From Escherichia coli (GTDB taxonomy: Bacteria; Pseudomonadota; Gammaproteobacteria; Enterobacterales; Enterobacteriaceae), in the NCBI RefSeq assembly GCF_001677475.2, contig NZ_CP015229.1: a stretch of DNA of 64,000 nt, one strand, 5' to 3'. Shown here one piece after another: positions 4,665-18,933 of the stretch (the stretch's first letter is position 1; each line of letters starts with the position of its first letter). Under the pieces are notes generated by a model. It did no database searches. It was not told where the DNA came from and saw only the letters and a program-made list of their open reading frames with translations. The position numbers were made by a program, and so were the translations under genes.

Positions 4665-4760
4665 AGATTGCCTGATGCGCTATGCTTATCAGGCCTACGC
4701 AGTACCTGCAATATATTGAATCTGCAGGACTTTGTAGGCCGGATAAGGCGTTATGAACTG
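4665..4760. repeat. REP/BIME-like palindromic repeats downstream of ybiT
   Basis: gcctgatgcgctatgcttatcaggcctac and gtaggccggataaggcg match the E. coli REP consensus in opposite orientations. Confidence 0.55.
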
Positions 4761-4847: not shown

Positions 4848-6107
4848 TCAAACATCCATGCCCAGTGCGCGCTTACCGTGAATGTTCAGATCCTCCAGCG
4901 TAAAGCGGCCTTCCCAGTTTGCTTCATAATCTTCCCGCGGGAAGTCGCCAGGTGATGCGCCTTTTTCCAGCGCCATTTTGACTTTGTGTGCATAAGCCCG
5001 ATTTTTCTCGCACATTGGCGCAGCAGGGATATACATCACGTTGCCCCAACCCTGTTGATTGTCTACTGGCGCGACGGAGTGAATCACATCGCAGTGCCAC
5101 CAGACGGAATCCCCTGCTGTTATCGCGGGAATGGAAGTCAGCGCTTTAAGCAGTAGTGGATGCCATTTCTCTGAAATGGGCAGAACTTTGCCAGGTGCAA
5201 CCCCGCACAGTTCATCGTCCGGTACGTCATCCAGCAGCGGGCGCAATAAAACATACGCCATCGCTTCCGGGATAGGCACCACATGTAACAATCCCTGACC
5301 CGATAACATATCAGAGAGCGCCGTCCAGCCTTGAAACGTGCGGAACACCGAACATTTTGTAGTGTTATCTACCGTGTACTCTTCGACATCGGTCCGGTGT
5401 GCAGCATCCCAGGGATCGTAATCATCGAAATTACCATTAAACACATTGGCAAAAACGCGCTGATAAGCGGGTAATAACCACCGTTCCAGCGCACCAGAAT
5501 CGGTATGCGCGCCCAGGCCTTTAGATGTAGTACCTGGAGGGCGGCGGCGGATCCTGTCTGGATAAATCACACTGATATCAGGATTAAACCACTGTTTGCC
5601 GTTGCTTTCAGACGTCCACAGTCGGTTTAGAAAAGATTGCACAGCAGCCATGTTTTCGCTCTGCCGCGCCTGCATCTGTGCTTGCGACCAGTAAATGGGA
5701 TAGATTTCGGGACGAGAAGCCTCCAGCGAGCCGAAAAAACTGTCGCCAGGGCCTTTATAAACATCATCAAAATGATTGATATCAAGATAATCGAGCATGG
5801 CACGATCCCACGCCATCGCCAGCTCGCGAGGGAAATGGCCTTTTATGACTGCACAGCCGCGACGTTTAATTTCATTGCGAGTGGCATCGCTTACTGTACC
5901 TGCGGCAATATCACTATAAGAAACTTCCGGCCAAACCGGCAGCCCTTGCGCTTTTAGGGCATCGATTTCAGCAACACGCGTTTCGATTTTTGCAGAGAGT
6001 GTATCGAAAACCTGTTGCACATCACCGAGCTGTTCTCGCAGCACAGCTTTCATCTCTCGGATAGCCGCTTTCGCATCTGTGGGCAGCGTCTCACAGGAAA
6101 AAGTCAT
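4848..6107 (-). CDS. ybiU: DUF1479-family protein YbiU
   Basis: 419-aa ORF; synteny between ybiT and ybiV; sequence recognised as YbiU. Confidence 0.8.
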   Translation of the reverse strand: MTFSCETLPTDAKAAIREMKAVLREQLGDVQQVFDTLSAKIETRVAEIDALKAQGLPVWPEVSYSDIAAGTVSDATRNEIKRRGCAVIKGHFPRELAMAWDRAMLDYLDINHFDDVYKGPGDSFFGSLEASRPEIYPIYWSQAQMQARQSENMAAVQSFLNRLWTSESNGKQWFNPDISVIYPDRIRRRPPGTTSKGLGAHTDSGALERWLLPAYQRVFANVFNGNFDDYDPWDAAHRTDVEEYTVDNTTKCSVFRTFQGWTALSDMLSGQGLLHVVPIPEAMAYVLLRPLLDDVPDDELCGVAPGKVLPISEKWHPLLLKALTSIPAITAGDSVWWHCDVIHSVAPVDNQQGWGNVMYIPAAPMCEKNRAYAHKVKMALEKGASPGDFPREDYEANWEGRFTLEDLNIHGKRALGMDV

Positions 6108-6211
6108 ATCAACCTCGCCTCTTTCATTCGAAATTAAAATGATTACGATTGATACATTAAGTTAAAAATAAGTTAACGCAAGATAAAAATCTTGAGTCAG
6201 TGCACAAAGCG

Positions 6212-6250
6212 AGCAAAAAGGAGAGAGGCCGAAGTGGTCACTTCGGCCAG
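6212..6250 (-). terminator. Rho-independent terminator downstream of ybiV
   Basis: Perfect 10-bp inverted repeat ggccgaagtg/cacttcggcc (6227-6248), followed on the minus strand by a T-rich run. Confidence 0.55.
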
Positions 6251-6258
6251 GGGGAAGA

Positions 6259-7074
6259 TCAACTATTGAAAGGAGCGATATTATCCAGCACCGCCTGAAT
6301 CACATTCAGCGCGCCTTCATGATTATTATCATCGGTAGCGTAACGGGCGATTTGTTTAATGTTTTCCGCAGCATTGCCCATCGCAAAGGAATAACGCGCC
6401 ATTTTCAGCATCTCCGCATCGTTACCGCTGTCGCCAATCGCTACCACATTTTGCGGTGACAGATCCCAGCGTTTCAGTAACCGCGAAATACCGTTTGCTT
6501 TATGTAGACCGGGAATAATCAGGTCGATAAAGCCAAAACCACTGGTAACGGGTTTCATAATGCCATCCAGCGCTATGTGCAGTTTGTCGATCACTAACGG
6601 GATTTGTTCATCCGGCAGGTTGAGCGAAAACTTGAACAGTACGTCGTCAATCTCCTGATAATCTTTTACAGGTTTCAGGCGATGGTAGTGTTTTGCCATC
6701 AGTGCGACGAATGCTTCGGGGGCGTTTTCGCTGACATATGCACTTTGCAGACCGCAGGCGACAAAATTGAGTTGCTTATCTTTTAGCAACTCGCCAATAA
6801 CAATCCGCGATTCATGTCGGGTCAGTTCGCCGTGGAACAACTGCTTGCCATGTTCGTAAACCAGTGCGCCGTTTTCCGCGACAAAAGAGATCTCATCCTT
6901 TAGCTCAGGAAAGAACGAAATAAGCTGGTAATACTGATTACCGCTGGCGACAACGAACTTAATGCCGCGCTTTTTCAGTTCCTGATATTGCGCCATAAAA
7001 CGTGGTTGGTTGTACGTTTTGGCGTCGTTAAGAAAAGTACCGTCCATGTCTGTGACGATAACTTTTACGCTCAT
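6259..7074 (-). CDS. ybiV: HAD-superfamily Cof-type sugar phosphatase YbiV
   Basis: 271-aa ORF with N-terminal HAD motif DMDGTFL and C-terminal GDSGNDAEM motif. Confidence 0.88.
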
Positions 7075-7219
7075 AGGTGTGCTCCTGGCTCGAAAATGAA
7101 ACCGTAACAGTGTAATAACAATGTGACGCAGAGCACAAATTATATTTCGAATGAAAGTAAGGATGAAATTGATGATGTGAATGATTTAGCCCGGCGACGC
7201 CGCCGCCGGGCTGAGGAGA

Positions 7220-9652
7220 TTACAGCATATGTTCAGTACGGGCGATGATATCGTCCTGTGCGTCTGGAGAGAGCGCGGTGAAGAAGGCGGAATAGCCCGC
7301 GACACGCACTACCAGATCGCGGTACTGATCCGGATGTTTTTTCGCTTCCAGCAGCGTTTCGCGGGAAACGATGTTGTACTGAATATGCCAGCCTTTATGC
7401 ACCTCGAAGAAGGTGCGCAGCAGGATCATCAGTTTCTGCTTGTCAGATTCGTTCTCCAGTGTTGCTGGATTCAGTTTCTGGTTGAGCAACACGCCGCCGA
7501 GAATCGCTGCCGTAGGCAGTTTACCCACCGAGCCAATGACCGCAGTAGGGCCAAGATGATCAGTACCGGAAGCCGGGCTTGCGCCTTCTGCCAGCGGGGT
7601 GTGGGCTTTACGCCCGTCCGGTGTTGCCATAGTCTGCGCGCCAAACGGTACGTTAGCGGAGATAGACGACGTACCCGCGTAATAGTTGCCGCCAACCGGA
7701 CCACGACCGTAGCGCGGATTATGGTACTGTTTCAGTTCGTCGATATAGGTCTGATAAGCGCGAGCCAGCAGCGTATCGACGGTATCATCGTCGTTGCCGT
7801 ACTTCGGCGCACCGTTAATCAGCCGCTGACGCAGCTGCTCGTGCGTCAGACCATCGAAGTCATCCGCCAGTGCGGCAGCCAGCTGTTGCTGACCAATCGC
7901 GCCCTGTTCAAATACCAGTTTCTTCACTGCCGCCAGGCTGTTGCCGAGGTTGGCAATGCCGACCTGCAGGCCAGAAACCCAGTCATATTTCGCGCCGCCT
8001 TGCTTGATACTTTTCGCTCGCTCAATGCAGTCATCCACCAGCGCCGAGCAGAGAATATCGTGTACGTTCTCTTCCAGCATGGTGTCGACGACATATTCAA
8101 TTTCGATTGATTTGCGGGTGTAGTAACGGATTTGCATATCCCACGCGTCCATTACTTCATCGAAATTGTTAAAGTTACCCGCTGACAACGCTTTTTCTTG
8201 TGGCAGGAACACTTTGCCGCTGGTGGCATCACGACCGCCTTCCAGCGCCGCCAGCATCACGCGGGCGAAGTTGATAAAGCTCATGCCGGTACAGCGATAG
8301 CCCCATTTGCCACCGACGGCGGTTTCGATACAACCAATCGCTGCATAGTCGTAAGCGTCCTGCGGTTCAATACCGAGTTTAATAAATTCCGGGATCACGA
8401 TTTCGTCGTTGTTGAACGCCGGCATCCCGAAGCCGCAACGGATCACCTGTACGCAGGCGTCGAGGAAATCGTTGCTCATTCCCGCGTGGTAACGCACGCT
8501 GAGGTTAGGCTGAGTGGAACGCAGGCGACCGCAGGATTCGAGGATCGCGTAAGAAAGTGGATTCACCGCGTCCATCGGTTGACCATCAACCAGATTTTGC
8601 CCGCCAATGGTGACGTTCTGATACAGCGGACTTCCCGCAGAGGCTTTTGAGTGCGAGCCGGAGCGGATTTTGTTCACTTCCAGCAGTTTCAACCAGCAGC
8701 TATGCAGCATCTCGATGGCGTGTTCACGATCCAGTATCTGGTTCAGTTCAACGTCGCGGCGATAGTACGGGTAGAGATACTGGTCCATACGACCAAACGA
8801 TACTGAGTGACCGTTAGATTCGATCTGCAAAATCAACTGGATGAAGTAGCACAGTTGCAGCGCCTGCCAGAAAGTCTGCGGCGGCTGGTGGGCGATAAGA
8901 TCGCAGTTTTCTGCTATCGCCAGCAGTTCATCGCGACGGCTTTCGCGGGTTTCAGTGGCTGCCATTTCACGCGCCAGGGCAGCGAAACGTTCAATGTGTT
9001 CACTGACTGCCACCAGCACGATATCAATCGCTTTCAGGAACTGCTCGCCGTGCAAATCTTCCAGCACCGTCAGGTTGATGCGCGAGCGACGTTCCGCTAC
9101 TTTCTCGCGCAGACCATCAAGACCTTTTTCCAGCAGCAGCGGGAAATTCACCGCCAGGTGCGCATCGCCGGAGGTCATATTGCCTTCCGCTTTAATGATT
9201 CCGGTCGCCAGCAGACCTTTTTGCTCATCGGTAAACATGCCGTAGCAGCGATCCTGTACCGTCTGACCGCGCCACCACGGGCACACTTCATGCAGAACAC
9301 GTTTGTTCTCTTCGCTCACCGCAAAACCTGCGCCGGGACGATCTGCCAGATCATCAATCTCTTTTTCGATCCAGGAGACGGTATATTCCGGGAAGATTGG
9401 CGCGGCGCGAACTTCGCTTGCCTGGTTGCCAATGATCAACTCATCGTGTTTGATCCAGATGGTGCGATTCGTCAGGTGATGTGCCAGCGCCAGCGCGCGA
9501 CGTACCGGGATCGGCTTATCGAGATGTTGTTGATACATCTCGGTATAGTGCTGCGCGCGCTCGGTACAAACCGGCGGTTTCACAATATGTACCAGCGCAT
9601 TTTTGTGCGCTTTAATGCGGTCGCTGAGCGTGTCCAGTTTCAGTGTGGTCAT
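7220..9652 (-). CDS. ybiW: Glycyl radical enzyme, pyruvate formate-lyase homologue YbiW (PflF)
   Basis: 810-aa ORF with C-terminal glycyl-radical signature RVAGYSAFF; adjacent to its activase. Confidence 0.88.
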   Translation of the reverse strand: MTTLKLDTLSDRIKAHKNALVHIVKPPVCTERAQHYTEMYQQHLDKPIPVRRALALAHHLTNRTIWIKHDELIIGNQASEVRAAPIFPEYTVSWIEKEIDDLADRPGAGFAVSEENKRVLHEVCPWWRGQTVQDRCYGMFTDEQKGLLATGIIKAEGNMTSGDAHLAVNFPLLLEKGLDGLREKVAERRSRINLTVLEDLHGEQFLKAIDIVLVAVSEHIERFAALAREMAATETRESRRDELLAIAENCDLIAHQPPQTFWQALQLCYFIQLILQIESNGHSVSFGRMDQYLYPYYRRDVELNQILDREHAIEMLHSCWLKLLEVNKIRSGSHSKASAGSPLYQNVTIGGQNLVDGQPMDAVNPLSYAILESCGRLRSTQPNLSVRYHAGMSNDFLDACVQVIRCGFGMPAFNNDEIVIPEFIKLGIEPQDAYDYAAIGCIETAVGGKWGYRCTGMSFINFARVMLAALEGGRDATSGKVFLPQEKALSAGNFNNFDEVMDAWDMQIRYYTRKSIEIEYVVDTMLEENVHDILCSALVDDCIERAKSIKQGGAKYDWVSGLQVGIANLGNSLAAVKKLVFEQGAIGQQQLAAALADDFDGLTHEQLRQRLINGAPKYGNDDDTVDTLLARAYQTYIDELKQYHNPRYGRGPVGGNYYAGTSSISANVPFGAQTMATPDGRKAHTPLAEGASPASGTDHLGPTAVIGSVGKLPTAAILGGVLLNQKLNPATLENESDKQKLMILLRTFFEVHKGWHIQYNIVSRETLLEAKKHPDQYRDLVVRVAGYSAFFTALSPDAQDDIIARTEHML

Positions 9653-9657
9653 GGTTG

Positions 9658-10557
9658 TTATCCTCGTAAGGTCGCGGTTAACCCTTTCTGGCAGGCATAC
9701 TGCTGGGCAAAGTCGAGCAGTTCTGGCGCATCAAGCGGTTTTTCCGGGGCGTCATAGGGCAGATTAAGTAAGTGATATTTGTTGATGCCCAGCGTGTGGT
9801 AGGGCAGGAAATGAATTTCACCAACGTGCAGCTCGTCGGCGGCAAAATCGGTAATGGCTTTTACAGAGGTTTCGTCGGCATTAAAGCCCTGAATCAGCGG
9901 CACGCGGATAATGATTTTTTTGCCCGCTGCGGCGAGTTTTTTCAGGTTATCCAACACCCTGGCGGCGTTACCGTCGGTCCACTGTTTAAACGGCGCGTCG
10001 GCAACGTGTTTTAAATCGGCAAGAAACAGATCGATATAGGACAGAGAAGGGGCGATATATTTCCACGGCACATGCAGACAGGTTTCTACCGCAGTATGAA
10101 TGCCGGCCTCGTGGCTGGCTTGCAGTAGCGCTGTCGCCATTTCCGGCTGCATGAATGGTTCACCGCCAGAAAGTGTTAAGCCGCCGCCGCTGCGATCATA
10201 AAACGGTTTATCGCGCAGAACGGTCGCCATGATCTCCTCAACGCTTTTCACTTCACCACACACGGTTAACGCCTGTGTCGGGCAGCAGTCGGTTAACGCC
10301 GTCAGATGCTCCGGGGTTAACTTTTCCCGATGAATAAGCAAACCATTCAGCGCGCGCTCAATCACTTCCGGCGCGGTCTTAGCGCACAGCTCGCAGCCTT
10401 CCAGACACAGTCGTGGGTCATACAGCAGATCCTGCGTGCGGGCGCGGCTTTCCGGGTTCTGACACCAGCGGCAGCCCAGCGAACAGCCTTTAAGAAATAC
10501 GACCGTGCGGATACCGGGGCCATCATGGGTCGAGTAGCGCTGAATATTGAAAATCAT
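9658..10557 (-). CDS. ybiY: Glycyl-radical enzyme activating protein YbiY (PflE), radical SAM
   Basis: Radical-SAM CxxxCxxC motif (CSLGCRWC) plus extra Cys clusters; start chosen at MIFNIQRY (about 299 aa); an in-frame ATG 27 nt upstream (10584) is the alternative. Confidence 0.8.
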
Positions 10558-10687
10558 AGTTGCCTCTCTGTTTCGTTCAAACATTAAAATACTTTCGAAT
10601 GAAAGTTAGATTGATGTGCGTCAACTGTTCAGAGAGTTTTCCCGTGATAGTCTACATTCAGACAAAAAGTACATTTTGAGGATGGTT

Positions 10688-11350
10688 ATGGAACTGTATC
10701 TGGATACTTCAGACGTTGTTGCGGTGAAGGCGCTGTCACGTATTTTTCCGCTGGCGGGTGTGACCACTAACCCAAGCATTATCGCCGCGGGTAAAAAACC
10801 GCTGGAGGTTGTGCTTCCGGAACTTCATGAAGCGCTGGGCGGTCAGGGGCGTCTGTTTGCCCAGGTAATGGCTACCACTGCTGAAGGGATGGTGAATGAC
10901 GCACGTAAATTGCGTTCTATTATTGCGGATATCGTGGTGAAAGTTCCGGTGACCGCCGAGGGGCTGGCAGCTATTAAGATGTTAAAAGCGGAAGGGATTC
11001 CGACGCTGGGAACCGCGGTATATGGCGCGGCACAAGGGTTGATGTCGGCGCTGGCAGGTGCAGAATATGTTGCACCTTACGTTAATCGTATTGATGCTCA
11101 GGGTGGTAGCGGCATTCAGACTGTGACCGACTTACACCAGTTATTGAAAATGCATGCGCCGCAGGCGAAAGTGCTGGCAGCGAGTTTCAAAACCCCGCGT
11201 CAGGCACTGGACTGCTTACTGGCAGGATGTGAATCAATCACGCTGCCACTGGATGTGGCACAACAGATGATTAGCTATCCGGCGGTGGATGCCGCTGTGG
11301 CGAAGTTTGAGCAGGACTGGCAGGGAGCGTTTGACAGAACGTCGATTTAA
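10688..11350 (+). CDS. fsaA: Fructose-6-phosphate aldolase 1
   Basis: 220-aa product starting MELYLDTSD; transaldolase-like fold; internal ATG chosen over the ORF-track start at 10616. Confidence 0.88.
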
Positions 11351-14579: not shown

Positions 14580-16437
14580 TGAACTTGATGCCGGTGATGT
14601 GCTGGCGGTTGAAAATCTGAATATTGCCTTTATGCAGGACCAGCAGAAAATAGCTGCGGTCCGCAATCTCTCTTTTAGCCTGCAACGCGGTGAGACGCTG
14701 GCAATTGTTGGCGAATCCGGCTCCGGTAAGTCAGTGACTGCGCTGGCATTGATGCGTCTGTTGGAACAGGCGGGCGGTTTAGTACAGTGCGATAAAATGC
14801 TGTTGCGGCGGCGCAGTCGTGAAGTGATTGAACTTAGCGAGCAGAGCGCTGCACAAATGCGCCATGTGCGCGGTGCGGATATGGCGATGATATTTCAGGA
14901 GCCGATGACATCGCTGAACCCGGTATTTACTGTGGGTGAACAGATTGCCGAATCAATTCGTCTGCATCAGAACGCCAGTCGTGAAGAAGCGATGGTCGAG
15001 GCGAAGCGGATGCTGGATCAGGTACGCATTCCGGAGGCACAAACCATTCTTTCACGTTATCCGCATCAACTCTCTGGCGGGATGCGCCAGCGAGTGATGA
15101 TTGCGATGGCGCTGTCATGCCGCCCGGCGGTGCTGATTGCCGATGAGCCAACCACCGCGCTGGATGTCACTATTCAGGCACAGATCCTGCAATTAATCAA
15201 AGTATTGCAAAAAGAGATGTCGATGGGCGTTATCTTTATCACGCACGATATGGGCGTGGTGGCAGAGATTGCCGATCGGGTACTGGTGATGTATCAGGGC
15301 GAGGCGGTGGAAACGGGTACCGTCGAACAGATTTTTCATGCACCGCAACATCCTTACACCCGTGCGCTGTTAGCTGCTGTTCCGCAACTTGGTGCGATGA
15401 AAGGGTTAGATTATCCCCGACGTTTCCCGTTGATATCGCTTGAACATCCAGCGAAACAGGCCCCCCCCATCGAGCAGAAAACGGTGGTGGATGGCGAACC
15501 TGTTTTACGGGTGCGTAATCTGGTCACCCGTTTTCCTTTGCGCAGCGGTTTGTTGAATCGCGTAACGCGGGAAGTGCATGCCGTTGAGAAAGTCAGTTTT
15601 GATCTCTGGCCTGGCGAAACGCTATCGCTGGTGGGCGAGTCTGGCAGCGGTAAATCCACTACCGGGCGGGCGTTGCTGCGCCTGGTCGAATCGCAGGGCG
15701 GCGAAATTATCTTTAACGGTCAGCGAATCGATACCTTGTCACCCGGCAAACTTCAGGCATTGCGCCGCGATATTCAGTTTATTTTTCAGGACCCTTACGC
15801 TTCGCTGGACCCACGTCAGACCATCGGTGATTCGATTATCGAACCGCTGCGCGTACACGGTTTATTGCCAGGTAAAGAAGCGGCTGCCCGCGTTGCGTGG
15901 TTGCTGGAGCGCGTAGGCCTGTTACCGGAACATGCCTGGCGTTACCCTCATGAGTTTTCCGGCGGTCAGCGCCAGCGCATCTGCATTGCTCGCGCGTTGG
16001 CATTGAATCCAAAAGTGATCATTGCCGACGAAGCCGTTTCGGCGCTGGATGTTTCTATTCGCGGGCAGATTATCAACTTGTTGCTCGATCTCCAGCGTGA
16101 TTTCGGCATTGCGTATCTGTTTATCTCCCACGATATGGCCGTGGTAGAGCGGATTAGTCATCGTGTGGCGGTGATGTATCTCGGACAAATTGTTGAAATT
16201 GGTCCACGGCGCGCGGTCTTTGAAAATCCGCAGCATCCTTATACGCGTAAATTACTGGCGGCAGTTCCGGTCGCTGAACCGTCCCGACAACGACCGCAGC
16301 GTGTACTGCTGTCGGACGAGCTTCCCAGCAATATTCATCTGCGTGGCGAAGAGGTGGCAGCCGTCTCGTTGCAATGCGTCGGGCCGGGGCATTACGTCGC
16401 ACAACCACAATCAGAATACGCATTCATGCGTAGATAA
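14566..16437 (+). CDS. gsiA: Glutathione ABC transporter ATP-binding protein GsiA (two ABC cassettes)
   Basis: 623-aa product starting at TTG 14566 (PHSDELDAG...); two Walker A motifs (GESGSGKS twice); overlaps the iaaA 3' end by 14 nt. Confidence 0.82.
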
Positions 16438-16456
16438 CATTCAGGCGGAGAATAAA

Positions 16457-17995
16457 ATGGCAAGAGCTGTACACCGTAGTGGGTTAGTGGCGCTGGGCAT
16501 TGCGACAGCGTTGATGGCATCTTGTGCATTCGCTGCCAAAGATGTGGTGGTGGCGGTAGGATCGAACTTCACCACGCTCGATCCGTATGACGCAAATGAC
16601 ACGTTATCTCAGGCCATAGCGAAATCGTTTTACCAGGGGCTGTTTGGTCTGGATAAAGAGATGAAACTGAAAAACGTGCTGGCGGAGAGTTATTCCGTTT
16701 CCGATGACGGCCTTACATACATCGTGAAGTTGCGGGAAGGAATTAAATTCCAGGATGGCACCGACTTCAACGCAGCGGCGGTAAAAGCGAATCTGGACCG
16801 GGCCAGCGATCCGGCGAATCATCTTAAACGCTACAACCTGTATAAGAATATTGCCAAAACGGAAGCGATCGATCCAACAACGGTAAAGATTACCCTCAAA
16901 CAGCCGTTCTCAGCGTTTATTAATATTCTTGCCCATCCGGCGACCGCGATGATTTCGCCGGCAGCGCTGGAAAAATATGGCAAGGAGATTGGTTTTCATC
17001 CGGTGGGAACCGGGCCGTATGAACTGGATACCTGGAATCAGACCGATTTTGTGAAGGTGAAAAAATTCGCGGGTTACTGGCAGCCAGGATTGCCCAAACT
17101 GGACAGCATAACCTGGCGTCCGGTGGCGGATAACAACACCCGCGCGGCAATGCTGCAAACCGGTGAAGCGCAGTTTGCTTTCCCCATTCCCTACGAGCAG
17201 GCCGCACTGCTGGAGAAAAACAAAAATATCGAGTTGATGGCCAGTCCGTCAATTATGCAGCGTTATATCAGTATGAACGTGACGCAAAAGCCATTCGATA
17301 ACCCGAAGGTCCGTGAGGCGCTGAATTATGCCATTAACCGCCCGGCGCTGGTGAAAGTGGCCTTTGCGGGCTATGCAACGCCAGCTACTGGTGTGGTACC
17401 GCCGAGTATCGCCTACGCGCAAAGTTATAAACCATGGCCTTACGATCCAGTGAAAGCGCGCGAATTACTGAAAGAGGCGGGATATCCCAACGGTTTCAGT
17501 ACCACGCTGTGGTCGTCACATAACCACAGCACCGCGCAGAAAGTGCTGCAATTTACCCAGCAGCAGTTAGCGCAGGTCGGGATTAAAGCCCAGGTGACTG
17601 CGATGGATGCCGGACAGCGGGCGGCAGAAGTTGAAGGTAAAGGGCAAAAAGAGAGCGGCGTGCGGATGTTCTACACTGGCTGGTCGGCTTCAACCGGCGA
17701 AGCTGACTGGGCACTATCGCCACTGTTCGCCTCGCAAAACTGGCCACCGACGCTGTTTAATACCGCGTTTTACAGCAATAAACAGGTGGATGACTTCCTG
17801 GCTCAGGCACTGAAAACTAATGATCCGGCGGAAAAGACCCGCTTGTATAAGGCGGCGCAGGATATCATCTGGCAAGAGTCGCCGTGGATCCCGCTGGTGG
17901 TAGAAAAACTGGTGTCGGCACACAGTAAAAACCTGACCGGTTTTTGGATCATGCCAGACACCGGCTTCAGCTTTGAAGACGCGGATTTGCAATAA
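16457..17995 (+). CDS. gsiB: Glutathione ABC transporter periplasmic binding protein GsiB
   Basis: 512-aa product from ATG 16457 with signal peptide [26 protein letters not shown]; family-5 solute-binding protein. Confidence 0.88.
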
Positions 17996-18012
17996 GCAAC
18001 GCAGGGAGTGGA

Positions 18013-18933
18013 ATGCTTAATTACGTTATCAAACGCTTGCTGGGGTTGATTCCGACGCTGTTTATCGTCTCGGTGCTGGTGTTTTTATTTGTCCATATGC
18101 TGCCCGGCGATCCGGCGCGATTGATTGCCGGGCCCGAAGCTGATGCGCAGGTTATAGAACTGGTGCGTCAGCAGCTGGGGTTGGATCAGCCGCTGTATCA
18201 CCAGTTCTGGCACTATATCAGCAATGCTGTGCAGGGGGATTTTGGCCTGTCGATGGTGTCGCGTCGTCCGGTTGGCGATGAGATTGCCAGCCGCTTTATG
18301 CCAACGCTGTGGCTGACCATAACCAGTATGGTCTGGGCGGTGATATTTGGTATGGCGGCGGGAATTATCGCCGCCGTCTGGCGTAATCGTTGGCCGGATC
18401 GATTGAGTATGACCATTGCGGTGTCGGGGATCTCGTTTCCGGCATTTGCTCTGGGGATGCTTTTAATTCAGGTATTCTCCGTTGAACTGGGCTGGCTGCC
18501 TACCGTGGGAGCAGACAGTTGGCAGCACTACATTTTACCCTCCCTGACGCTCGGCGCGGCAGTGGCAGCCGTGATGGCGCGCTTTACCCGCGCGTCGTTT
18601 GTCGACGTTTTAAGCGAAGATTATATGCGTACCGCGAGGGCGAAAGGGGTGAGCGAAACCTGGGTTGTCCTCAAACACGGGCTACGCAACGCGATGATCC
18701 CGGTAGTGACCATGATGGGCTTACAGTTTGGCTTTTTGCTCGGTGGTTCCATCGTGGTGGAGAAAGTTTTCAACTGGCCCGGACTTGGACGCTTACTCGT
18801 TGACTCCGTAGAAATGCGCGATTACCCGGTGATTCAGGCGGAAATTCTGCTTTTCTCGCTGGAATTTATTCTTATCAACTTAGTGGTGGATGTGCTTTAC
18901 GCTGCCATTAACCCGGCTATCAGGTACAAGTAA
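18013..18933 (+). CDS. gsiC: Glutathione ABC transporter permease GsiC
   Basis: 306-aa hydrophobic ORF, DppB/OppB-like permease; synteny. Confidence 0.88.

Follow-up and report, generated by a model that had tools for sequence, protein, structure and literature searches.

The ybiV-ybiW-ybiY-fsaA locus of Escherichia as a very probable module for anaerobic 1,5-anhydroglucitol breakdown, with predicted control by YciT and FNR

What does the glycyl radical enzyme YbiW act on, and how is its gene controlled together with its neighbours, which encode a sugar phosphatase, an activating enzyme and a fructose-6-phosphate aldolase? We addressed these questions in a stretch of 64,000 nucleotides of Escherichia coli DNA (contig NZ_CP015229.1; hereafter, the window). 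According to the listing of open reading frames (ORFs), compared with the K-12 annotation, positions 6259-11350 contain ybiV, ybiW, ybiY and fsaA, all four intact, and the two borders are the stop codons of ybiV and fsaA. An initial annotation had given these identities to the four genes at the same borders, and both the intact ORFs and the family scores, all above their cut-offs, bear it out; the E-values are effectively zero and nearly all complete E. coli genomes share the stretch (see below), so that chance is no issue. It had further held that the substrate of YbiW was not firmly established, and that the neighbourhood hinted at an anaerobic, sugar-derived substrate. The hint was a good one. 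The first statement is outdated because the literature already defines the substrate: publications of 2024 give the substrate and product of YbiW as well as crystal structures of the enzyme, and this finding is already known. The locus is very probably the Escherichia module for the anaerobic breakdown of 1,5-anhydroglucitol.

According to section 5.1 of a 2025 review (PMC12441222), which summarizes Ma et al. (JACS 2024, 146:26187), YbiW opens the ring of 1,5-anhydroglucitol-6-phosphate (AG6P) to yield 1-deoxyfructose-6-phosphate. As summarized in the same review, the paralogue PflD cleaves the C2 epimer, 1,5-anhydromannitol-6-phosphate, to the same 1-deoxyfructose-6-phosphate (again citing Ma et al. 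2024), a phosphotransferase system phosphorylates both 1,5-anhydroglucitol and 1,5-anhydromannitol, and the glycyl radical reaction, which is strictly anaerobic, enables growth on the polyol in E. coli and in many gut bacteria. The functional assignment of YbiW therefore relies on this review summary, on three independent reference lists in which Ma et al. 2024 is cited, and on entries of the Protein Data Bank (PDB): 8id7 and 8yjn for YbiW, 8yjo for PflD and 6xs4 for a close YbiW orthologue. The YbiW protein of the window matches 8id7/8yjn over its full length (1848 bits). As it shares 803 of its 810 residues with K-12 YbiW and is encoded within an unchanged gene order, it is an orthologue of the characterized enzyme. 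The current RefSeq labels for YbiW, 'putative pyruvate formate lyase' or 'glycyl radical protein', are stale.

At a mechanistic level, the polyol is reported to enter the cell through a phosphotransferase system as AG6P. From what is known of its family, YbiY would use its radical S-adenosylmethionine (SAM) [4Fe-4S] cluster to cleave S-adenosylmethionine reductively and would abstract a hydrogen from G786 of YbiW, and the radical would then pass from G786 to C441. The C441 thiyl radical would abstract the C2 hydrogen of AG6P; with E443 acting as a base, the ketyl radical would expel the ring oxygen from C1, and the C1 radical would regain the hydrogen to give a methyl ketone. This is the 1,2-elimination logic of the glycyl radical diol dehydratases, the leaving group here being presumably an ether oxygen. 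As C2 would turn planar in the course of this reaction, both epimers would yield a single product, and such a convergence would explain why there are two paralogous enzymes, YbiW and PflD. Beyond this point, 1-deoxyfructose-6-phosphate is reportedly split by FsaA or FsaB into glyceraldehyde-3-phosphate and hydroxyacetone, and GldA is said to reduce hydroxyacetone to 1,2-propanediol. Synteny and co-regulation agree with an order in which FsaA would act on 1-deoxyfructose-6-phosphate and GldA on hydroxyacetone. These two steps are supported by the position of fsa, which is divergent from ybiY-ybiW here, in K-12 and in three other genera (Yersinia, Pantoea and Brenneria), by the presence of fsaB and gldA at the pflD cluster, and by the use of hydroxyacetone as a donor by FSAA, an enzyme whose physiological role was called enigmatic in 2020 (PMC7767278).

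The same chemistry might serve mainly to relieve the cell of AG6P as a toxic, non-metabolizable compound (sugar-phosphate stress) rather than to supply carbon, YbiV being the phosphatase that acts as a relief valve. Indeed, ybiYW lies in Y. enterocolitica between sgrR and sgrS, which are glucose-phosphate stress genes (PMC2760817). The ybiV gene has its own copy of the operator described below together with a perfect -10 element, and it is de-repressed in a yciT deletion. However, ybiV is not in the clusters of Yersinia, Pantoea and Brenneria, and we know of no AG6P phosphatase activity of YbiV. The pathway is moreover reported, in the review summary, to support growth on 1,5-anhydroglucitol (PMC12441222), and we consider stress relief unlikely as the main role.

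The active site of YbiW was compared with those of PflB, PflD and a glycerol dehydratase, a check envisaged in the initial annotation. The motifs named there are all present: RVAGYSAFF at residues 783-791 of YbiW (G786 codon at 7295-7297), CxxxCxxC in YbiY and the extra YbiY Cys clusters. YbiW matches the domains PF02901 (694 bits) and PF01228 (112 bits). Its active site reads G-C441-I-E443 (codons 8330-8332 for C441 and 8324-8326 for E443), that is, a single Cys followed by a Glu in the eliminase pattern, whereas PflB has a Cys-Cys pair (ACCVS); C441 aligns with C419 of PflB and with C433 of the B12-independent glycerol dehydratase of C. butyricum (PDB 1r8w). YbiW scores above the cut-off of TIGR01774, the PFL2/glycerol dehydratase family (1406 vs 678 bits), and below that of TIGR01255, the pyruvate formate-lyase equivalog (162 vs 994 bits); its sequence identity amounts to 26% with PflB and to 39.6% with PflD. 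Because of the single Cys-x-Glu, the low identity to PflB and the failed TIGR01255 match, the sequence places YbiW among the glycyl radical enzymes of the 1,2-eliminase type rather than among the pyruvate formate-lyases. PflB and PflA belong to the same glycyl radical superfamily and activase type as YbiW and YbiY, but PflB differs from YbiW in its Cys-Cys pair and in catalysing C-C cleavage.

The nearest characterized relative of YbiW by sequence is the glycerol dehydratase 1r8w (E 8e-164), which shares with it the TIGR01774 family, the Gly radical motif, the Cys-x-Glu and the active-site His and Ser: H165 and H282-S283 of YbiW align with H164 and H281-S282. These shared features, like the PDB name 'Probable dehydratase YbiW', could mean that YbiW is a dehydratase of the glycerol or diol type whose substrate is a small free diol. 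However, the 1r8w residues H164, S282 and D447 form what we take to be the substrate-binding set of the glycerol dehydratase, and the position of D447 is not conserved in YbiW; H165 and S283 conserved without D447 fit a related mechanism on a different substrate. In 1r8w the substrate is a free diol and a hydroxyl leaves, whereas in YbiW it is a sugar phosphate and the ring ether oxygen would leave. PflD retains an Asp aligned with D447, and has NASS where YbiW has NGHS. The conserved partners of ybiW, furthermore, are a sugar-phosphate aldolase and a DeoR-type regulator, without aldehyde-handling genes, and AG6P is the reported substrate in the review summary (PMC12441222). The free-diol dehydratase reading was rejected on these three counts, and we regard it as highly improbable. 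A true pyruvate formate-lyase, the label of the K-12 RefSeq record and the sense in which an engineering paper counted YbiW among four E. coli formate acetyltransferases (PMC9055928), was rejected with next to no probability left to it, as the Cys-Cys pair is absent and the TIGR01255 score falls below its cut-off, and as YbiW is given another reaction in the literature summarized by the review (PMC12441222).

We then asked how the 1,5-anhydroglucitol module may be controlled. The window contains three perfect copies of the 13-mer TTTCGAATGAAAG and no more, against a chance expectation of about 0.002 exact copies; one copy precedes ybiU, one precedes ybiV and the third lies within the divergent ybiY/fsaA spacer (Table 1). 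All three copies are found in K-12. As published, the ybiU, ybiV and ybiY group comprises the strongest responders to the loss of the DeoR-type regulator YciT: the log2 fold changes in a yciT deletion are +7.7 for ybiY, +7.0 for ybiU, +3.5 for ybiW, +2.2 for ybiV and +1.8 for fsaA, and peaks obtained by chromatin immunoprecipitation with exonuclease treatment (ChIP-exo) were assigned to ybiV and ybiY (PMC8464067). A Reg-Seq preprint (first posted 2025, version May 2026) reports that the ybiY promoter is active only anaerobically, that YciT is pulled down on a bait overlapping this promoter, and that an activator, left unidentified, has a footprint just upstream. In Yersinia, Pantoea and Brenneria, the cluster has next to it a regulator with 58-65% identity to YciT, and the operator, CTTTC(A/T)TTCGAAA, is found at the equivalent place before ybiY; the Yersinia regulator gene and the Pantoea ybiU are preceded by further copies. 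The three 13-mers are probably YciT operators, and YciT, for which repression is published, would bind these identical sites before ybiU, ybiV and ybiY/fsaA.

Next to the ybiY operator lies an FNR-like box, TTGACGCACATCAA when read towards ybiY and also recorded as TTGATGTGCGTCAA. The pattern TTGAY-N4-RTCAA is found 5 nt upstream of the ybiY operator in all five sequences compared (window, K-12, Yersinia, Pantoea and Brenneria), and the arrangement of the ybiY promoter core given in Table 1 is common to all of them. Agreement with the FNR consensus is perfect for the boxes of Yersinia and Brenneria, the window box has one mismatch, and the whole 64 kb contains only 5 boxes of that quality. If the TTTAAT hexamer given in Table 1 is the -10 element, the box is centred near -41.5. 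The ybiY promoter would in that case be class II FNR-dependent, with a repressor site located between the activator site and the -10 element. The FNR-like box may be the site of the anaerobic activator seen in the Reg-Seq study, and it suggests that FNR would provide the anaerobic activation of ybiYW.

Several observations weigh against parts of this picture. The ChIP-exo peak coordinates lie about 100 bp or more from the 13-mers, and at ybiY the Reg-Seq authors themselves point out an offset of about 100 bp; because of this offset, the operators are sites that we infer. Among the papers available to the search, none named ybiY together with FNR. A simple sigma-70 scan returned no convincing site and fewer sites than shuffled sequence gave (3 vs 6.7), and its single match near ybiY overlaps the start codon; the promoter model therefore relies on conservation. 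As for the pathway, the steps beyond 1-deoxyfructose-6-phosphate are reported ones with indirect genomic evidence behind them, and the radical mechanism set out above is one that we infer. Finally, the window YbiW differs from the K-12 enzyme at 7 residues (A61T, E184K, M246I, T306I, H474R, T506M and D769E); at 3 of the 7 positions, it has the residue of the close orthologue 6xs4.

Table 1. Coordinates of the genes, putative control sites and hairpins of the ybiU-fsaA region in the window
Feature	Position	Strand	Remarks
ybiU	4848-6107	-	419 aa, DUF1479/Gig2-like; outside 6259-11350, same regulon
Putative operator copy 1, TTTCGAATGAAAG on - strand	6121-6133	-	14 nt upstream of the ybiU ATG; same site in K-12
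Terminator-like hairpin with T-rich tail	6227-6248	-	directly 3' of the ybiV stop codon; 9 pairs, 6 G-C
ybiV	6259-7074	-	271 aa, Cof-type HAD-IIB sugar phosphatase
Putative operator copy 2 and ybiV promoter core	7139-7157	-	13-mer at 7145-7157, abutted on the ybiV side by a perfect TATAAT at 7144-7139; presumed promoter role
G+C-rich hairpin, 9-bp stem	7188-7212	-	directly 3' of the ybiW stop codon; without U-run
ybiW	7220-9652	-	810 aa, glycyl radical enzyme; PFL-like and Gly_radical domains
ybiY	9658-10557	-	299 aa by the K-12 start, radical-SAM activating enzyme
Putative ybiY promoter core	10583-10624	-	FNR-like box 10624-10611, 5 nt, operator copy 3 at 10605-10593, -10-like TTTAAT 10588-10583; presumed roles
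fsaA	10688-11350	+	220 aa, fructose-6-phosphate aldolase

The other proteins of the locus carry the residues expected of their families. YbiY has the radical-SAM motif C25-x3-C29-x2-C32 and a Cys-rich insert (C51/C55/C58 and C91/C92/C100), whereas PflA is without insert, and it scores above the cut-off of the activase subfamily TIGR02494 (368 vs 174 bits). A GAGAGG ribosome-binding site precedes the ybiY ATG at 10557; the open frame extends to 10584, which would give 308 aa. Since the gap between the ybiY stop and the ybiW start is only 5 nt, the two genes form one operon. In Y. pseudotuberculosis, two called genes of 135 and 164 aa (9098-9996 of the comparison stretch) stand in place of a single ybiY orthologue and jointly span the whole protein; this looks like a frameshift, and the activase gene may be a pseudogene there. 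FsaA scores above the cut-off of NF009296 (450 vs 306 bits) and has the Schiff-base K85, in IVVKVPVT, none of its 6 changes from K-12 being at K85; the mechanical fsaA ORF begins earlier, at 10616. YbiV scores above the cut-off of TIGR00099, the Cof-type HAD-IIB family (222 vs 137 bits), and its N-terminal DxD nucleophile motif, DMDGT, begins at residue 9. The hairpin that follows ybiW differs from a canonical terminator; it may stabilize the transcript or act as a partial termination element ahead of the ybiV promoter.

Of the closest known systems, two are found in K-12. The K-12 YbiW/YbiY and FsaA genes of the AG6P pathway (b0823-b0825) agree with those of the window in the order and lengths of the genes, in the catalytic residues and in all three operators; the locus differs in its nucleotides, which are 97-98% identical, and in a deeply diverged ybiU allele. 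The proteins are 97-99% identical, YbiY having 5 and YbiV 3 residue changes in addition to those listed above for YbiW and FsaA. The PflD/PflC and FsaB system resembles that of YbiW in combining a paralogous glycyl radical enzyme, an activase and an Fsa-type aldolase. However, the K-12 pflD cluster has gldA-fsaB-ptsA adjoining frwCB-pflDC-frwD, whereas the ybiW locus has neither phosphotransferase genes of its own nor gldA. In Pantoea alhagi, about 3 kb downstream of ybiW (15599-18710 of the comparison stretch), there is a gene for a glucose-family phosphotransferase EIIBCA and one for a LacI-type regulator; this EIIBCA might serve for uptake, or its presence might be coincidental.

The ybiU gene, which along with ybiY responds most strongly to the loss of YciT, encodes a protein that matches PF07350 with 500 bits and whose structures, 2dbi and 2csg, were deposited in the PDB without function. 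YbiU is 84% identical to its K-12 counterpart. The ybiU gene and the ybiU-ybiV spacer (4848-6258) are strongly dimorphic, the operator being present in both alleles; the window allele is found with at least 95% identity in about 224 complete E. coli genomes and with 60-90% identity in about 3780, and about 1400 give no megablast match; the genes on either side are about 98% identical. The gene is also present in the Pantoea cluster. Permissive PDB and Pfam searches with YbiU gave no weak matches to characterized families, and a single-sequence AlphaFold model was unusable, with a mean predicted local distance difference test score (pLDDT) of 35.7. The DUF1479 domain presumably has a cupin or 2-oxoglutarate oxygenase-like fold. 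To our knowledge, YbiU and YbiV are uncharacterized members of a YciT-controlled anhydro-sugar regulon.

A joint reading of these elements can be proposed, which we hold to be doubtful as a whole. YciT would sense AG6P or 1-deoxyfructose-6-phosphate, FNR would limit ybiYW to anaerobiosis, YbiV would dephosphorylate AG6P or the deoxy-ketose phosphate as a relief valve, and YbiU would be an oxygen-dependent enzyme acting on the anhydro-sugar or its phosphate, for example by hydroxylating C1 to give a hexose phosphate. Were this true, the activity of YbiU would give Escherichia an aerobic branch. Clinicians who treat the neutropenia of glycogen storage disease type Ib (GSD Ib) and of G6PC3 deficiency would have an interest in an aerobic route by which 1,5-anhydroglucitol is removed; according to the review summary, the radical pathway is unable to operate at the site of polyol absorption (PMC12441222).

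As the function of YbiW is already published, the value of the present analysis lies in joining three bodies of work: the 2024 biochemistry, the 2021 YciT ChIP-exo and RNA-seq study, to which the pathway was not known, and the Reg-Seq preprint, which calls ybiYW unannotated and does not name the anaerobic activator. Testable regulatory predictions follow from the three identical copies of the operator, from the presence of yciT orthologues beside the cluster in other genera and from the conserved FNR-like box.

At the level of distribution, the 5.6-kb stretch is found in 5425 of the 5426 complete E. coli genomes at 90-98% identity and is therefore core Escherichia DNA. The top identity to any of these genomes is 98.0% for the 5.6 kb and 98.3% for another 20 kb of the window. 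As these best values do not exceed 98.0-98.3%, the window probably comes from an Escherichia lineage that is slightly divergent and lies just beyond the diversity of E. coli that has been sampled. Among the best 120 matches listed in a protein search with YbiW, all are from Enterobacterales, with at least 86% identity. One NCBI record describes a protein of 1047 aa that is 99% identical to YbiW and has HAD phosphatase domains too; a fusion of ybiW and ybiV, or else an artefact of annotation, is the probable explanation. An Rfam search gave no match within 6259-11350. In the same search, a match to the small RNA family ES036 (CssrF) was found between ybiT and ybiU, at 4691-4733 on the - strand (41.6 bits, for a gathering score of 37.6).

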